Assembly: GCA_947492885.1 (NCBI GenBank)
Contig: CANLPK010000005.1
Location: forward strand, 41 to 64,040
Length of the DNA: 64,000 nt
Direction of reading: 5' to 3'
From: Bacteroidota bacterium
Lineage (GTDB): Bacteria > Bacteroidota > Bacteroidia > UKL13-3
Part shown: one piece after another, positions 6,361 to 29,103 of the stretch
Layout of the letters: every line of letters starts with the position of its first letter
Numbering within the stretch: the stretch's first letter is position 1
Notes under the pieces: model-generated
The model's input: only the letters and a program-made list of their open reading frames with translations
Databases searched by the model: none
What the model was told of the DNA's origin: nothing
Program-made: the position numbers and the translations under genes

Positions 6361-7410
6361 TTATTTAGCAGCGGTAGCCGTGTTTGGAATCTCAATATCC
6401 AAGGTTCTTCCAACTACATGTGCAATGGGTTTGATTTTCTCCAGCATCGTAACAAACTGATCGGGGTATAGAGATTGTGGTCCATCGCTCAATGCTTGCT
6501 CAGGGTTGTTATGAACTTCAATCATGAGTCCATCGGCGCCAGCCGCAATTGAAGCTAAGGCCATAGGAGTTACACGATGGCGCAATCCGGTACCATGACT
6601 GGGGTCGCTAAATACAGGGAGGTGACTCAATTCTTTTATGATTGGGAAGGCCGCAACATCAAGGGTATTTCTTACACTACTATCGAAGGTACGAATACCT
6701 CTTTCACACAAAATCACCTTTTCGTTACCACCACTTAAAACATATTCAGCGCTCATCAACCATTCGGTGATTTTGCTGCTCATACCTCGTTTCAACATCA
6801 CGGGCTTATCGATATTTCCTAATTCAGTAAGCATGTAAAAGTTCATCATATTACGAGTCCCTACTTGTAATATGTCAGCATATTCATAAACCTCGTCGAG
6901 TACACTTAAATCGATGATTTCGGTAACCACTCTTAGGTTGTATTGATCGGCCGCCTGGCGCAGGAGTTTCAGTCCTTCAACAGCCATCCCTTGAAATGTA
7001 TAAGGAGATGTTCTTGGTTTATAAGCACCACCTCTAATAAACTTCACTCCATTTTGATGCAACATTTTTGCAATAGAGAAAATCTGTTCTTCACTCTCCA
7101 CAGCACACGGTCCTGCGATGGTATTAATCATATTACCACCAATGGTAATGCCTTTCACATCGAAAGTGGTAGGTTCTTTTTTCCAAGTACGGCTGGCCAA
7201 TTTATATGGTTCACGTACCTCAAACACATCTTGAACGCCATCAAGTCATTTGATGCGACGAATGTCAAAGTCGTGAGGAAATTCACTGATTGCAACAATA
7301 TTTCTGTCGTTCAGCGTCGCATTATGAATTTCGAGATTTAAATCGGAAAGCTGACGAAGCACTTCGCCTACCTGTTTTTTAGAGAGATTCTCTTTTAGTA
7401 TTACAATCAC
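6361..7410 (-). pseudogene. aroF: Type I-beta 3-deoxy-7-phosphoheptulonate (DAHP) synthase with an N-terminal ferredoxin-like regulatory domain, interrupted by one in-frame TGA at 7246-7248
   Basis: One minus-strand frame is open from GTG 7410 to TAA 6361, except for TGA at 7246-7248. The first 54 codons (VIVILKENLSKKQVGEVLRQLSDLNLEIHNATLNDRNIVAISEFPHDFDIRRIK) resemble the regulatory domain of Thermotoga-type DAHP synthase. The ORF-track product 6361..7227 (GTG start) carries GPCAVES, RGGAYKPRTSPYTFQG, LKRG, CERGIRTF and DPSH. Confidence 0.8.
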
Positions 7411-7416
7411 CGTAAG

Positions 7417-8811
7417 TTAATTTTGAGTGGTGTAGTATAATTTAAGTTTAATGCCGGGTCCTTTTCTTGTATCCATCACCAAATGACTCGCCGCAATAGG
7501 GTTGTCGGTAGGAATGATTAGATAGAGTCCACGGTTTTTATCTGTATTGCCAGTGGCCTTATAGTCGTTGATTAACTCTTGCAGATGCAAGGTAAAATTG
7601 AAACGGTATTCGCCAGAGGTGGTATTATAATAGCCACCATAATATGGATTTAATGGAGAACTGCCTGCATAAAAAATGTCTTTAATGAAGTCATTTCTGC
7701 CAGTGGTAGCATTGGGTTGTAATAATCGCAAACTAGTAGGTGCGTAGAAATCGGCATTCAACCAGCTTCCGTAAGGTTTTATAATGAGCTCTGCACTATT
7801 AATAGCGATGTTCTTATACTTCTTCACCAACTCATAAAGATAAGGAATTTGAATTCTCATCTTATACTTACCCATCGACTGAATAAAGCAAGTATCGGCA
7901 TTATAATGTGTGCCAGGATAGGCATAGTCTTGTGGTAAAGACGTAAGTGGAGGAGTAGGGAGGGTATGATTATAGGTAGTAATACGACGAGATGTTGTTC
8001 CCACAGTGAATGAAACAGAGAGGGAATCATTATAATATACTACCAAGGCAGCACCCGTAGGAGCATTTGACTTATTAGTTGTTCTTAAATTCACATATAC
8101 AAAACCTCCACTACCTGAAAGCACGCCTTCACTAGTAATGGATAAACCTTTAAAGTAATTTAAGAAATCGGTATTGGTTGAGAACGCGGTACCTGGAGCA
8201 TTAAATAATTTACTCTTGGCCCAGGTATCATCAAGCTTGAAGCGCAATGCTGGTGGCATTTTAGAAGATTTGCTTCCCAATACAATGGAAATACTATCGC
8301 GTAGATTCAGAATTCCATTCGATGACCCCAACGAAACCGGACTGTAATTAATAAAGCTATTGCTATAATAAGAACGTGTGGCGTCCAATCCACTGCTTAG
8401 CTCGTGAACACTGAATCGTTGTGCGGTACTGATATCGCCAAAGCTTCTGTTTCCTTCGCTATTGTCGGCGGCTAAAAATCCTACGTATAATACTGCGGAG
8501 TCGAACTTGGTAGCGCCTCCAAAAGTAAAATTATCGCGTGGGAGCAGGTATTGCGCCGAAACGGTGGCATGGGTAAGGTTAAAAGTGCTATTGTCACTTG
8601 TGCCGAGTACATTGTACGACAGTTCGGAGGTGATTATCGAATCCTCCAAAACAGTACGGGTAAGCATGGTAAGCGTATCGGTGTAAATGATATTGCTATT
8701 GGTTGCTTCAGGTACAAGGCCATTACCCACATTATCTTTGCGCTTACATGAAACGACAAAGAGAGATACTAAAATTAAAATTCCGGCGAAACTCAGTTTA
8801 TTTTCCATCAA
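7417..8811 (-). CDS. DUF4270-like lipoprotein
   Basis: Lipoprotein signal ...LILVSLFVVSCKR. Sits downstream of the short glycogen-synthase-like gene with a 14-nt overlap, a pairing I recall as conserved in Bacteroidota. Confidence 0.55.
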   Translation of the reverse strand: MMENKLSFAGILILVSLFVVSCKRKDNVGNGLVPEATNSNIIYTDTLTMLTRTVLEDSIITSELSYNVLGTSDNSTFNLTHATVSAQYLLPRDNFTFGGATKFDSAVLYVGFLAADNSEGNRSFGDISTAQRFSVHELSSGLDATRSYYSNSFINYSPVSLGSSNGILNLRDSISIVLGSKSSKMPPALRFKLDDTWAKSKLFNAPGTAFSTNTDFLNYFKGLSITSEGVLSGSGGFVYVNLRTTNKSNAPTGAALVVYYNDSLSVSFTVGTTSRRITTYNHTLPTPPLTSLPQDYAYPGTHYNADTCFIQSMGKYKMRIQIPYLYELVKKYKNIAINSAELIIKPYGSWLNADFYAPTSLRLLQPNATTGRNDFIKDIFYAGSSPLNPYYGGYYNTTSGEYRFNFTLHLQELINDYKATGNTDKNRGLYLIIPTDNPIAASHLVMDTRKGPGIKLKLYYTTQN

Positions 8812-9619
8812 TCACTTTGTGATAAAACTCTTCGTAAATGTCAATCAAATTTTCGGATTCGCCCTGTGGGGACTCTAATATTAATTTCTTTTTTTGAGTA
8901 TCGATAAACTTATCGACCTTGCTATTTATATTATCTGATGCACGAATAATTCCATCGGAATGTGCAATAGCGCCCATATACATGCTGGCACATTCTCCAT
9001 TTTCGTATGGAGCAGTGTGTTCTTGTTTTACATGTTGTAAAGAAGCTTTGCGGATGAATTCCTTTCCAAGGGAGCTATTGTACTGATTTTCAAAAACCGA
9101 ATACACTACTTTGGATTTACGGAAAATAGGATCGTCTTTATAAGTTGACTTCAAATACATAGGGATCAAACTGGTCATCCAGCCTTGGCAATGAATTAAG
9201 TCAGGAGGCCATCCTAATTTTTTACATGTTTCGAGTACTCCTTTGCAAAAAAAGATAGTTCTTTCATCATTATCCTTGAAAAACTTATCGTTTTCGTCGT
9301 TAAAAATGAATTTTCTGTGGAAATAGTCTTCATTATCTAAAAAATAGACTTGCAATTTGGCTTGAGGCAAAGAGGCTACTTTAATCGTCAATGGATAATC
9401 GGTATCATCAATATTGATATTAATTCCCGACAAACGAACTACTTCATGCAACTTGTTTCTGCGCTCGTTAATAACTCCAAAACGTGGGATAAACACACGA
9501 ATTTCAGTGTTTCTCTCTTGAATGTGCTTTGGAAGACGGAGCGCTAAGTTTGCAATACCTGAAGTTTCTAAGAAAGGGCTCATTTCTGAGGAAACGAACA
9601 TTATTCTTTTCTTCTGCAT
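8798..9619 (-). CDS. Short glycogen/starch-synthase-like protein (GT5 N-terminal domain only)
   Basis: MFVSSEMSPFLETSGIANLALRLPK resembles the GlgA N-terminal K-x-G-G-L region. At 273 aa it has no C-terminal GT-B half. Confidence 0.7.
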   Translation of the reverse strand: MQKKRIMFVSSEMSPFLETSGIANLALRLPKHIQERNTEIRVFIPRFGVINERRNKLHEVVRLSGININIDDTDYPLTIKVASLPQAKLQVYFLDNEDYFHRKFIFNDENDKFFKDNDERTIFFCKGVLETCKKLGWPPDLIHCQGWMTSLIPMYLKSTYKDDPIFRKSKVVYSVFENQYNSSLGKEFIRKASLQHVKQEHTAPYENGECASMYMGAIAHSDGIIRASDNINSKVDKFIDTQKKKLILESPQGESENLIDIYEEFYHKVIDGK

Positions 9620-9755
9620 ATTGAAATTGATTTAAACTTTTAATAGAACTGTTCAGCAAATTTAAGCATAAATACCCAAAAAAGCTATACGGGACAAGGT
9701 TTGGACTAAAATAAAGATTTGTTTGTATGGATTATTTTTTGTAATGATAGGGAGT

Positions 9756-10397
9756 TTAGAGCATTAAACTCTTAACCTCTCCTTTGCCTTCCCGAACCAA
9801 AAATGGCATTTCTTCGGTACAGTCAATTATCGTAGATGGCTGATTATTACCGTATCCATCACTTAACATGCAATCTATTTGCTTCTCATAGGTTCCAAAA
9901 ATCTCATACGGGTCGGTGATATAGTCCTCGATTTCATTCGTACTATGAATTGATTTCGAAACCATCGGATTCCCTAGCTCCTGAATGAGCATTCGGGCCA
10001 CATTATTGTCGGGAACACGAATTCCCACCGTTTTTTTCTTGTTATGGAAAATCTTGGTGACATTGCTGTTGGCCTTTAAAATGAATGTATAAGGTCCTGG
10101 AAGCGTTTGTTTCATGAGCTTGAATACAGGAGTGTCAAAAGGCGTGGTGAAGTCGGAGATATGCTTTAAATCGTCGCAAATCAATGCCAAGCTTGAGGTT
10201 TCGGGCTTGGAATTGAATATTTTGCAAAGCTTCTCGATGGCTTTATAATTCATCAAGTCGCATCCAATAGCATAGATGGTATCAGTAGGGAAAATAATGA
10301 TTCCTCCTTCTTTCAAGTGTTTCACTGCTTGTTTTATATGCAGCGAATTGGGATTCTTATCATTGACCTCTAAAAACATCGGCGCAAAGTTACGCAA
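9756..10397 (-). CDS. tsaC: L-threonylcarbamoyladenylate synthase (TsaC/YrdC family)
   Basis: GGIIIFPTDTIYAIGCD and LPGPYTFIL motifs of the YrdC/Sua5 family. Confidence 0.85.
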   Translation of the reverse strand: MRNFAPMFLEVNDKNPNSLHIKQAVKHLKEGGIIIFPTDTIYAIGCDLMNYKAIEKLCKIFNSKPETSSLALICDDLKHISDFTTPFDTPVFKLMKQTLPGPYTFILKANSNVTKIFHNKKKTVGIRVPDNNVARMLIQELGNPMVSKSIHSTNEIEDYITDPYEIFGTYEKQIDCMLSDGYGNNQPSTIIDCTEEMPFLVREGKGEVKSLML

Positions 10398-25740: not shown

Positions 25741-26769
25741 ATGCAAATAAAATACGGACTCAATTCCTTGCCATCTTTACTCAAGTCAACTGGGGCTACA
25801 AGCGTATTTGTATTGGTTGATGAGCATACCGCGAAGCATTGTTTGCCACTCATTAAGAAACATATACCAGTATTTACTAAAATAAGTATCAAGAGTGGTG
25901 AGTCGAATAAGAATTTGCAAACCTGTGAAAAGGTATGGCAGACTTTAATTCAGAAAAATGCCGACCGTCATTCGTTACTCATCAATTTAGGAGGTGGTGT
26001 CGTTACCGATTTGGGCTCCTTTTGTGCTTCGGTATATATGCGTGGAATTCGATTTATCAATATTCCTACCACCCTGCTTGCCATGGTTGATGCATCAATA
26101 GGCGGTAAAACTGGAATTGATTATCTCGCTTATAAAAATATGATTGGCTCATTCGCCAATCCAGAAGCTATCTGTATTGATACTATATTTTTGAAAACAT
26201 TGCCTGCTCCTCAACTGCTATCGGCATCAGCAGAAATATTTAAGCATGCCATACTTCAAGGCCGCAATGAAACGAAGATTCATCTTGAGAAAAAATTCAG
26301 CACCTTTTCGGATGAAAATATTCTCTCATGTATTAAGAAGTCGGTGAAGTATAAACTGAGTATTGTTGCTAGCGATCCCAAAGAAGCTGGCGATCGAAAA
26401 AAACTCAACTTGGGTCATACAATAGGTCATGCATTAGAAAGTTATATGATGTTGTATCATAAGCCCATGCTGCATGGTGAAGCAATAGCCTTGGGATTGT
26501 TGGCGGAAGCTTTTATTGCCCATAGCGACTTCGATTTAGATTATAATGAATTTTTAAAGACCGTATTTTGGTACGATCTGAACTTCAAAAAGCCATCGCT
26601 TGAAAGCGTGAATCTGAATACTCTCATTAAGCTTATGCGAAAAGATAAGAAGAACCGAGGTGCTACTATACGCATGGTGCTTCCCGTTGGAAGTGGTAAG
26701 GTACGCACCGATATTGAGGTTGCAGAGAAACAAATTATGGATGGACTGAAATTTGTAATGGCATTTTAA
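25741..26769 (+). CDS. aroB: 3-dehydroquinate synthase
   Basis: LGGGVVTDLGSF, DASIGGKTGID and GHTIGHALE metal/NAD motifs. Confidence 0.9.
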   Translation: MQIKYGLNSLPSLLKSTGATSVFVLVDEHTAKHCLPLIKKHIPVFTKISIKSGESNKNLQTCEKVWQTLIQKNADRHSLLINLGGGVVTDLGSFCASVYMRGIRFINIPTTLLAMVDASIGGKTGIDYLAYKNMIGSFANPEAICIDTIFLKTLPAPQLLSASAEIFKHAILQGRNETKIHLEKKFSTFSDENILSCIKKSVKYKLSIVASDPKEAGDRKKLNLGHTIGHALESYMMLYHKPMLHGEAIALGLLAEAFIAHSDFDLDYNEFLKTVFWYDLNFKKPSLESVNLNTLIKLMRKDKKNRGATIRMVLPVGSGKVRTDIEVAEKQIMDGLKFVMAF

Positions 26770-26771
26770 AA

Positions 26772-27965
26772 ATGTATTCAGTTCAATTACCTAAAAGCAA
26801 AAGCATTTTAAATCGCTGTTTGATTTTGTCGGCACTTACCAAATATGCTCCGGTTTACTTGCCTCCCGACAATGAATTGCCCAACGATGTGTTGGTGATG
26901 AAGCGATTATTGTTTGATAATTTAACGAATGAATTTAATGTTGAAGATGCTGGTACAGTGTTCCGATTTTTGACTGCCTATCTTAGTATTATAGAAGGCA
27001 CCCATCGAATTTATGGTACCCAAAAATTAAATGAACGCCCAATACAACCATTGGTAAAAGCATTGCTAGCCTTGGGTGGTAGTATAGAAAATGAAAATAT
27101 CGATGGTAATGCGCCACTAATTATTCGTGGTGCATCGATTCAGGGTGGTGATATTTCTCTAGACGCGGGAATGAGTAGTCAGTTTTTAAGCGCCTTGATG
27201 CTCATTGCTCCAATGCTTTCTAATGGATTGCGAATTCATCTCGAAAAATTAACCTCTTCTCCATATATTAATATTACCGCTGAATGCCTCAGATGGTTTG
27301 GTGCTCGAGTTTCACAGCGAGCCCATGTTATCGAAATTCAAACTGGTTGTCCTGATACTGCAAAAGCGCTCAGTATCGACGATATAGAATCTGACTGGAG
27401 TAGTGCGGCATTCTGGTATTCGTTGAGTGCCGTTACAGGTAAAGCTTTTGAACTTCACGGACTAAAAGAAGAAAGTGTTCAAGGTGATAAGGCCTGTATT
27501 CATTTATTCAAAAGCTTGGGAGTTGTTACCCAATTTACAGCAACAGGAATTATCATTAACAAAACTGAAGCTGCTCATATTGCACCTGAATTTAATTTAG
27601 TGGATTGCCCAGATATTGCTCCTGCACTCGTTGTGGCCTGTGCATTGCTTAAAATGGATGCAAAATTCAATGGCCTGAGATCCTTGGCTTATAAAGAGTC
27701 GAACCGATTGCTTTCATTAGAGGTGGAACTTAAAAAGTTGGGTGTTCATTTCTTGAATGCTAATGAAACATGGGAATTGAAAACGGAAAGCCTTCAATTG
27801 AAACCCTTGCAATTAAATACCTATCTCGATCATCGTATGGCCATGGCCTTTGCAAGTGCTCAAGCGGTATATCCGGAGATTACAATAGAAAACCCCGATT
27901 GTGTTTCTAAATCATATCCAATGTTCTGGCTAGAATTTAACCGCATCTTTAGAAATGGAAAATAG
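26772..27965 (+). CDS. aroA: 3-phosphoshikimate 1-carboxyvinyltransferase (EPSP synthase)
   Basis: LPKSKSILNR, AGTVFRFL, ESNR and DHRMAMAF motifs. Lies 2 nt after aroB. Confidence 0.9.
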   Translation: MYSVQLPKSKSILNRCLILSALTKYAPVYLPPDNELPNDVLVMKRLLFDNLTNEFNVEDAGTVFRFLTAYLSIIEGTHRIYGTQKLNERPIQPLVKALLALGGSIENENIDGNAPLIIRGASIQGGDISLDAGMSSQFLSALMLIAPMLSNGLRIHLEKLTSSPYINITAECLRWFGARVSQRAHVIEIQTGCPDTAKALSIDDIESDWSSAAFWYSLSAVTGKAFELHGLKEESVQGDKACIHLFKSLGVVTQFTATGIIINKTEAAHIAPEFNLVDCPDIAPALVVACALLKMDAKFNGLRSLAYKESNRLLSLEVELKKLGVHFLNANETWELKTESLQLKPLQLNTYLDHRMAMAFASAQAVYPEITIENPDCVSKSYPMFWLEFNRIFRNGK

Positions 27966-28023
27966 TGCAGGCTTCCAGGTTTATCCCCTTGTGATCCAAT
28001 TCAAATACTCTTAATTTGCAAGT

Positions 28024-29103
28024 ATGTCATTCAATAGCATAGGCGAGATATTTACAGTCACTACTTTTGGTGAAAGTCATGGAGAAGCTGTGGGCGCAGT
28101 CATTGATGGTTGCCCGTCGAATTTCCTACTCGATTTGGAAGCGATCCAATACCAATTAAATCGCCGCCGTCCAGGCGCAACGGCTGGCAGCACTACCCGA
28201 AAGGAAACCGATGAGTTTAAAATTATAAGTGGGGTATTTGAAGGGAAAACTACCGGAGCACCTATCACCATCATCATCGAAAATAAGGATGCTAAGAGTG
28301 AAGACTATTCAGAAATTAAGAAATTCTATCGCCCGTCGCATGCCGATTTTGTATACGATAAAAAGTATGGGCACTATGATTATAGAGGGGGAGGACGCAG
28401 CAGCGCGAGAACCACAGCCCCATTGGTGGCTGCAGGCGCTATCGCACAGCAACTTTTGGATACTCAAAATATTACAATAGCAAGTTATGTATCGGCAGTA
28501 GGAGAAGTGCGAATCCCCGAAGGTTATGAATTGGATCTAACGCAAATTGATAGCAATAGCGTACGTTGTCCTGATTTAAAAACAGCTAACGAAATGCTTG
28601 CACTTATCGAGAATATTAGAAAAGAAGGAGATACTATTGGAGGGATTATTCGTTGCTCGGCAACAGGTGTTCCTGTTGGTTTGGGTGAACCTCTTTTCGA
28701 AAAATTAAACGCCAATATTGCCAAGGCCATGTTTAGTATTAATGCGGTTAAAGGTGTTGCATTTGGTGATGGATTTGATGGTGCCCGAAGTTTGGGGTCG
28801 AAGCAAAATGATGCATTCGAAAAAACAGAAGCCGGTTGGCATACTACCTCAAACCATAGTGGTGGTATTCAAGGAGGTATAAGCAATGGGATGGAAATCG
28901 TATTCGATGTGGCTTTCAAGCCGGTATCAACTATTATGCAACCCCAAACTACGGCCAATCGAAGTGGGGTGCAGGATATATTGCAGCCAGCGGGCCGTCA
29001 TGACGCCTGTGTGGTACCGAGGGCTGTGCCCATTGTGGATGCCTGCACCGCAATTATTATATTAAATCATTTGTTAATGCGCCGTGCAACGCTATCGTTT
29101 TAA
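28024..29103 (+). CDS. aroC: Chorismate synthase
   Basis: TTFGESHG, RRRPG, RPSHAD, GGGRSSARTT and GRHDACVVPRAVPI signatures. Confidence 0.95.
   Translation: MSFNSIGEIFTVTTFGESHGEAVGAVIDGCPSNFLLDLEAIQYQLNRRRPGATAGSTTRKETDEFKIISGVFEGKTTGAPITIIIENKDAKSEDYSEIKKFYRPSHADFVYDKKYGHYDYRGGGRSSARTTAPLVAAGAIAQQLLDTQNITIASYVSAVGEVRIPEGYELDLTQIDSNSVRCPDLKTANEMLALIENIRKEGDTIGGIIRCSATGVPVGLGEPLFEKLNANIAKAMFSINAVKGVAFGDGFDGARSLGSKQNDAFEKTEAGWHTTSNHSGGIQGGISNGMEIVFDVAFKPVSTIMQPQTTANRSGVQDILQPAGRHDACVVPRAVPIVDACTAIIILNHLLMRRATLSF

Follow-up and report, generated by a model that had tools for sequence, protein, structure and literature searches.

A probable young strain-level nonsense allele within the regulatory domain of a Bacteroidota DAHP synthase gene

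Both the shikimate pathway and aromatic amino acid synthesis begin with the reaction of DAHP synthase. In the Thermotoga enzyme, Phe/Tyr are bound by a ferredoxin-like domain, which also serves as a gate to the active site (PMC5526877; PMC5493349). Barrel-only forms of the type I-beta enzyme are also described: 3PG8, a crystallised truncated Thermotoga maritima enzyme of 272 residues that begins at about residue 67, is purpose-built, and the naturally unregulated enzymes of A. pernix (1VS1) and P. furiosus (1ZCO) have their own start signals. A truncated Thermotoga DAHP synthase is reportedly active without its regulatory domain and insensitive to feedback. Loss of an N-terminal domain through an early stop is familiar from the restart proteins of lacI and T4 rIIB, where an in-frame GUG within about 20 nt of the stop gives a product that lacks the N-terminal domain only.

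The window, by which we mean the whole 64,000-nucleotide stretch of Bacteroidota DNA that was analysed, contains a minus-strand frame of 350 codons that runs from a GTG at 7410–7408 to a TAA at 6363–6361 and is interrupted by one internal stop only, a TGA at 7248–7246 (codon 55). The base after TGA55 is C (stop context TGAC). Sequence and frame confirm what an earlier note had claimed of this DNA, namely that a single TGA splits a DAHP synthase frame, that an in-frame GTG lies seven codons beyond it (at 7227, codon 62), and that the downstream shikimate genes are intact. The ORF listing for the window reports the two pieces separately, as 54 aa (7246–7410) and 288 aa (6361–7227). The features are as follows.

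6361–7410, minus strand: interrupted type I-beta DAHP synthase gene with N-terminal FXD/ACT domain, 350 codons with both stops counted, TGA inside and TAA at the end (NF006421, PF18152, PF00793 and alignment to 1RZM)
7246–7248, minus strand: premature stop TGA, codon 55; the mutated base is 7247, a minus-strand G where all relatives and conspecific assemblies have T
7249–7410, minus strand: N-terminal 54-codon fragment; of the regulatory domain it has strands 1 to 3 and both helices, but not the last strand
7225–7227, minus strand: GTG codon 62 (conserved Val62), candidate restart, 18 nt past the TGA
6361–7227, minus strand: 288-codon ORF that starts within the last FXD strand and continues through the linker and the complete catalytic barrel (PF00793, 246.5 bits)
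7411–7419, minus strand: TAA of the upstream BamH/DUF4270 gene (7417–7419) and the 6-nt spacer to the native GTG, a stop-proximal GTG start
25741–29103, plus strand: aroB, aroA and aroC, intact shikimate genes (context)

The gene lies in an odd three-gene operon, in which the BamH/DUF4270 gene overlaps the preceding gene by 14 nt, an arrangement conserved in the conspecific contigs; that preceding gene (8798–9619) encodes a half-length glycogen-synthase-like GT5 protein. Among the shikimate genes, aroA (EPSP synthase, 26772–27965) scores 256.5 against an NCBIfam equivalog cut-off of 287.25, the model being matched from position 66 only; its N-terminus is short or divergent, and this is conserved in the sister species G003.

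When the frame is read through the TGA, the resulting protein matches DAHP_snth_FXD (PF18152) over residues 1–67 with 33.1 bits (cut-off 27) and DAHP_synth_1 (PF00793) over residues 87–326 with 245.7 bits (cut-off 25.5). It also exceeds the thresholds of NF006421 (3-deoxy-7-phosphoheptulonate synthase; 451.9 bits, cut-off 335) and TIGR01361 (368.8 bits, cut-off 267.75), and aligns without a gap to residues 1–334 of the T. maritima DAHP synthase 1RZM (E 6e-95). The 54-codon fragment alone matches PF18152 positions 1–40 with 28.4 bits. Because the stop is spanned by a Pfam domain and also by an alignment of 334 residues without gaps, we regard the two pieces as one interrupted gene and not as a chance pair of ORFs. 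The assignment to the Thermotoga-type I-beta enzymes with their two-domain architecture, proposed in the earlier note from the letters alone, is thus borne out by Pfam, NCBIfam and the 1RZM alignment, and its alignment of the stop with Ser55 of the Thermotoga enzyme proves correct.

The same note had placed the stop exactly at the junction of the two domains, and here the comparison with the fold leads to a different position. An AlphaFold2 model built from 27 homologues (mean pLDDT 88.8) has a strand at 2–5, a helix at 11–23, strands at 28–33 and 36–41, a short helix at 51–54 and a strand at 59–63, followed by a linker, a hairpin at 82–91 and then the barrel. The stop, position 55 of the 67-residue FXD model, falls between helix 2 (51–54) and the last strand (59–63), and so lies inside the regulatory domain, from which it cuts off the last β-strand. 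GTG62 is located within that same strand.

The metal, PEP and E4P motifs are all present in the window frame (Cys102, KPRTS 131–135, GARN 184–187, KRG 207–209, His272, Glu298 and Asp309) and are invariant or nearly so in a 27-sequence alignment. The T. maritima enzyme (1RZM, 3PG9) has the same metal and substrate residues. It differs in having Ser at position 55, where there is a stop here and a Leu in close relatives. All catalytic residues are retained in the 288-aa ORF, among them the invariant C102, K131, P132, R133, S135, R186, K207, E298 and D309. This ORF spans the region of 3PG8, and the barrel-only enzymes align to it from residue 69 (1VS1) and 81 (1ZCO); since the three alignments begin at 69, 69 and 81, a product started at codon 62 would contain all of these regions. 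In contrast to the dedicated starts of those enzymes, the candidate start here is an accidental internal Val codon. At codon 62 relatives likewise have Val, written GTG or GTT, and judged by this comparison the GTG at 7227 is a conserved Val codon and not an evolved start. The window gene accordingly falls outside the naturally unregulated I-beta type: its GTG is an internal Val62, and the short ORF occurs in one haplotype only.

We then consider the gene in its relatives. The family surveyed comprises 119 genomes, the whole order, and the orthologue was found in 113 of them; a six-frame search recovered it in all 30 relatives searched. In 111 of the 113 genomes with the gene the frame is open over 335–390 codons, or the match is truncated where a contig ends. 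Broken copies were limited in this survey to the window genome and G002, which represents a different species of the genus; the copies of five congeners and 106 other genomes are not broken. Apparent internal stops in G006, G004 and G001 were rejected, as they are the genes' own terminal stops, past which the search had continued to read. A single polypeptide joining both domains is encoded in the conspecific and related genomes and not by the TGA allele, and across this survey the fused two-domain architecture is the family norm. Since five congeners, a further 106 genomes from the family and no fewer than five conspecific assemblies have one open frame, a conserved split gene is ruled out, and the comparison of orthologues thereby supports the earlier suggestion of a lesion rather than an established split gene.

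All five congeners whose gene is intact have Leu at codon 55, encoded by TTA in three of them and by TTG and CTT in one each, and the codon is TTA in every conspecific assembly except the records of the TGA haplotype. More distant genera have Met or Glu at this position, and T. maritima has Ser. By codon alignment the change is TTA to TGA, a single T to G transversion (plus-strand A to C at 7247). The one-base origin proposed for the stop therefore stands, but the proposed route from a Ser codon, TCA to TGA, does not, because the alignment gives Leu TTA as the ancestor.

The intact allele of the window species is represented by the protein P0127, whose 349 residues equal the window read-through with Leu55. 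P0127 is encoded in NCBI assembly GCA_947505015.1, in the Logan runs ERR12084944, ERR12084952 and ERR12084954 and in ENA ERZ27280296; the contigs that carry it, from at least five other samples, match the window at 99.7–99.9% identity across stretches of up to 7 kb and have TTA without exception. The 288-aa and 54-aa products are recorded from two contigs only, the window's own and k141_1550956 of ENA ERZ27280213. These two TGA records have in common a second private SNP, at window position 9506, and differ at five clustered sites (9188–9320), where each of the two records matches a different conspecific haplotype. From the shared private SNP and the clustered differences we regard them as two assemblies of one haplotype, and they may derive from overlapping read sets. 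Judged by these records, the intact allele is the common one within the species, and the TGA is private to one haplotype.

The SNPs among conspecific assemblies lie in tight blocks (window 8939–9044, 9188–9320 and 9732–9822), with each assembly's partner changing from block to block. This pattern points to mosaic haplotypes or to assembler path switching in a strain mixture.

Comparison with the sister species G003, which has 94.8% nucleotide identity in the gene, indicates how little else has changed. The 50 differing codons consist of 47 synonymous changes, two conservative replacements (V224I and Y315F) and the stop, and the first 54 codons contain seven differences and no amino-acid change. 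In pairwise comparisons across the genus, where it could be computed, dN/dS is ∼0.02–0.04 in the regulatory part and the barrel alike. On these figures the remainder of the gene is under strong purifying selection. No relaxation is visible, and we therefore take the stop to be very recent.

Our main reading, to which we assign a probability of roughly 0.7, is that the window carries a very young strain-level nonsense allele, Leu55 TTA to TGA, of the gene for a Tyr/Phe-type, feedback-regulated DAHP synthase in one species of an uncultured genus, and that this allele is probably a hypomorph that has lost its regulation and is tolerated for the time being, not an evolved arrangement. It shares with known segregating nonsense polymorphisms and strain-level pseudogenes a private one-base stop, an intact conspecific allele and the absence of secondary decay. 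By these features TGA55 belongs to the segregating strain-level nonsense polymorphisms and is an ordinary lesion, representing no new gene arrangement.

On the reading of a recent nonsense allele, translation would terminate at UGA55, and the resulting peptide of 54 residues, without the last regulatory strand, is probably useless. Residual enzyme could then come from two sources. The first would be re-initiation at GUG62, 18 nt downstream of UGA55. The native start is likewise a GUG, 6 nt after the stop of the upstream gene; because this position relative to the BamH/DUF4270 TAA is conserved, stop-proximal GUG initiation appears to be normal for this mRNA. There is no recognisable upstream signal at GTG62, and no Bacteroidota-type TAnnTTTG promoter box was seen by eye between 7228 and 7410. 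Translation initiation in Bacteroidota proceeds largely without Shine-Dalgarno pairing. The second source would be low-level read-through at UGA-C, a stop context rarer in this genome than any other.

The restart product would be a 288-residue catalytic core, expected, by analogy with the truncated enzymes, to be active and feedback-insensitive. In the Thermotoga enzyme the ferredoxin-like domain both binds the inhibitor and acts as the gate, and this product is therefore predicted to be blind to Tyr/Phe. In stop–GUG spacing and in the predicted N-terminal loss the putative restart at GUG62 resembles those of lacI and T4 rIIB. The outcome suggested in the earlier note, deregulated rather than dead, may apply to this allele.

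Among the other explanations, plain loss of function remains a tentative candidate, though we consider it distinctly less probable than a hypomorph. The lesion would then be tolerated by virtue of another enzyme or of the environment, the strain being on its way towards aromatic auxotrophy or backed by a paralogue. The seven genomes of the genus contain no type II (PF01474) or type I-alpha (TIGR00034) DAHP synthase, a finding that counts in favour of this explanation. Two more type I-beta homologues were found in the window's assembly, on contigs C125 and C18. The gene on C125 (L003 1366–3592), a contig of 7.2 kb, is a DAHP synthase–chorismate mutase fusion that adjoins a second aroB. No other gene of this kind occurs in the order, the adjoining aroB shares 41% identity with that of the window, and an identical protein is found in other samples on a 79-kb contig with its own aroB-aroA-aroC. 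On these three grounds we rejected it as a backup enzyme; the contig is probably mis-binned from another Bacteroidota.

The C18 paralogue is the more serious candidate for a backup. It has 332 aa, an FXD-like N-terminus and 48% identity to the window gene, and it scores above the NCBI DAHP synthase cut-offs. Within the family it is confined to the genus, six of whose seven genomes have it (G002 does not), and it is only in the genus that has this paralogue that lesions in the window gene are seen; both points favour a tolerated loss. Against this stands its context. The paralogue lies on the minus strand (L002 241–3516) between an RPE-like barrel/CBS fusion (339 aa) and a KdsC-family phosphatase (155 aa), and the six genomes that have it are exactly those without canonical KdsA; G002 has KdsA and no paralogue. 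All seven genus genomes are without canonical KdsD/KpsF, yet KdsB is present. In addition, the paralogue has GAKA for GARN, that is, Lys-Ala in place of the Arg186-Asn187 that is invariant in 27 aligned DAHP synthases. We suggest that it may serve Kdo-type sugar synthesis rather than aromatic synthesis, and that the cluster is a candidate for a non-orthologous route to Kdo-8-phosphate. Redundancy for the interrupted gene is uncertain. The intact aroB, aroA and aroC also argue against plain loss, and chorismate is required for folate and quinones as well, so that a complete null should be costly.

An assembly or consensus artefact, in which the true DNA reads TTA and the G at 7247 is a systematic error or a rare variant picked by the assembler, is unlikely; we consider the stop very probably to be real DNA. 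The genome is a metagenome-type assembly of 183 contigs, 89% complete, the mosaic SNP blocks indicate that strain mixtures are present, and the allele is limited to two records that apparently come from one study, all of which would fit an artefact. The same base, however, occurs together with the second private SNP at 9506 in two non-identical assemblies, and short-read assemblers place a base only on several concordant reads. Every ORF of at least 100 codons was compared with the syntenic 77 kb of G003. With shadow ORFs and a single upstream extension set aside, the only one of ∼58 genes to have an in-frame stop was that for DAHP synthase, and no frameshift was found in the genes of the 64-kb window relative to G003. 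The absence of any other such lesion across the window argues against a generally error-prone sequence.

A third explanation is adaptive deregulation, in which loss of the feedback domain is selected in the genus and truncating lesions within codons 1–64 recur because the catalytic core thereby escapes inhibition by Tyr/Phe. It draws on two further lesions. In G002 a 71-nt deletion removes codons ∼27–50 and shifts the frame (L009, G002:C66, ∼1430–1510). A further lineage of the genus, represented by the 1-kb JGI contig 3300049830, has GAA to TAA at codon 64 (L041 224–226), and this copy also carries a 21-nt in-frame deletion of seven residues after the KRG motif (L041 ∼655). With TGA55, three independent lesions thus fall in codons 27–64, the catalytic frame is still open in all three, and in the survey the lesions are confined to the genus, being found in two of its seven genomes and in none of the 106 others (Fisher p = 0.003, calculated by hand). 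When the window genome, which was pre-selected, is left out, the comparison becomes 1/6 versus 0/106 (p = 0.05, likewise by hand).

Several observations nevertheless make selection for deregulation a doubtful explanation. All three lesions are strain-level, with intact alleles of the same species in P0127 for the window and P0009 for G002. Beyond the lesion, translation in G002 and in the JGI contig could next start in frame at the GTG of codon 84, inside the N-terminal barrel hairpin; this, and the seven-residue loss in the latter, look like decay, and by their sequence both lesions look like plain inactivation. The regulatory domain is conserved as strongly as the barrel. The JGI case, moreover, came from a length-filtered search that is biased towards N-terminal lesions. 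A bolder form of the idea, in which populations of the genus repeatedly yield alleles that cut the feedback domain of their sole dedicated DAHP synthase, are kept rare by a conditional advantage, and make a feedback-blind enzyme by restart at GUG62, we regard as a long shot.

Recoding of the UGA (as selenocysteine, Trp or Gly, or by programmed read-through), or an established split into two genes, can be dismissed, as the homologous position is Leu, Met, Glu or Ser and never Cys or Trp, no tRNA-Sec or UCA-anticodon tRNA is among the 27 tRNAs detected (an incomplete set), TGA ends 99 long ORFs with no other in-frame TGA in the window genes, and no relative has the same split; in its favour stands only the rarity of UGA-C, the least used of the twelve four-base stop signals in the genome (6/1223). 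UGA-C is a weak terminator in E. coli. An alternative genetic code is ruled out on the same counts, since TGA terminates 99 of 1223 long ORFs genome-wide (8%; TAA 888, TAG 236). tRNA-Trp is absent among the 27 tRNA genes, in line with the 89% completeness of the assembly.

For annotation, the 54-aa and 288-aa ORFs are best treated as a single interrupted gene, and the capacity of this assembly for aromatic synthesis should be scored with care. The C18 paralogue in its Kdo-like cluster, in genomes without canonical KdsA and KdsD, may be a more interesting lead than the stop itself. In production strains, it is usually through engineering that feedback control of the first shikimate step is abolished. 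Should the restart product be made, the TGA55 allele would be a natural experiment in the removal of allosteric control at this step, and the recurrent N-terminal lesions in the genus would deserve a population-genetic look; were domain-cutting alleles truly recurrent, they would parallel, in nature, the feedback-resistant DAHP synthases obtained by engineering.
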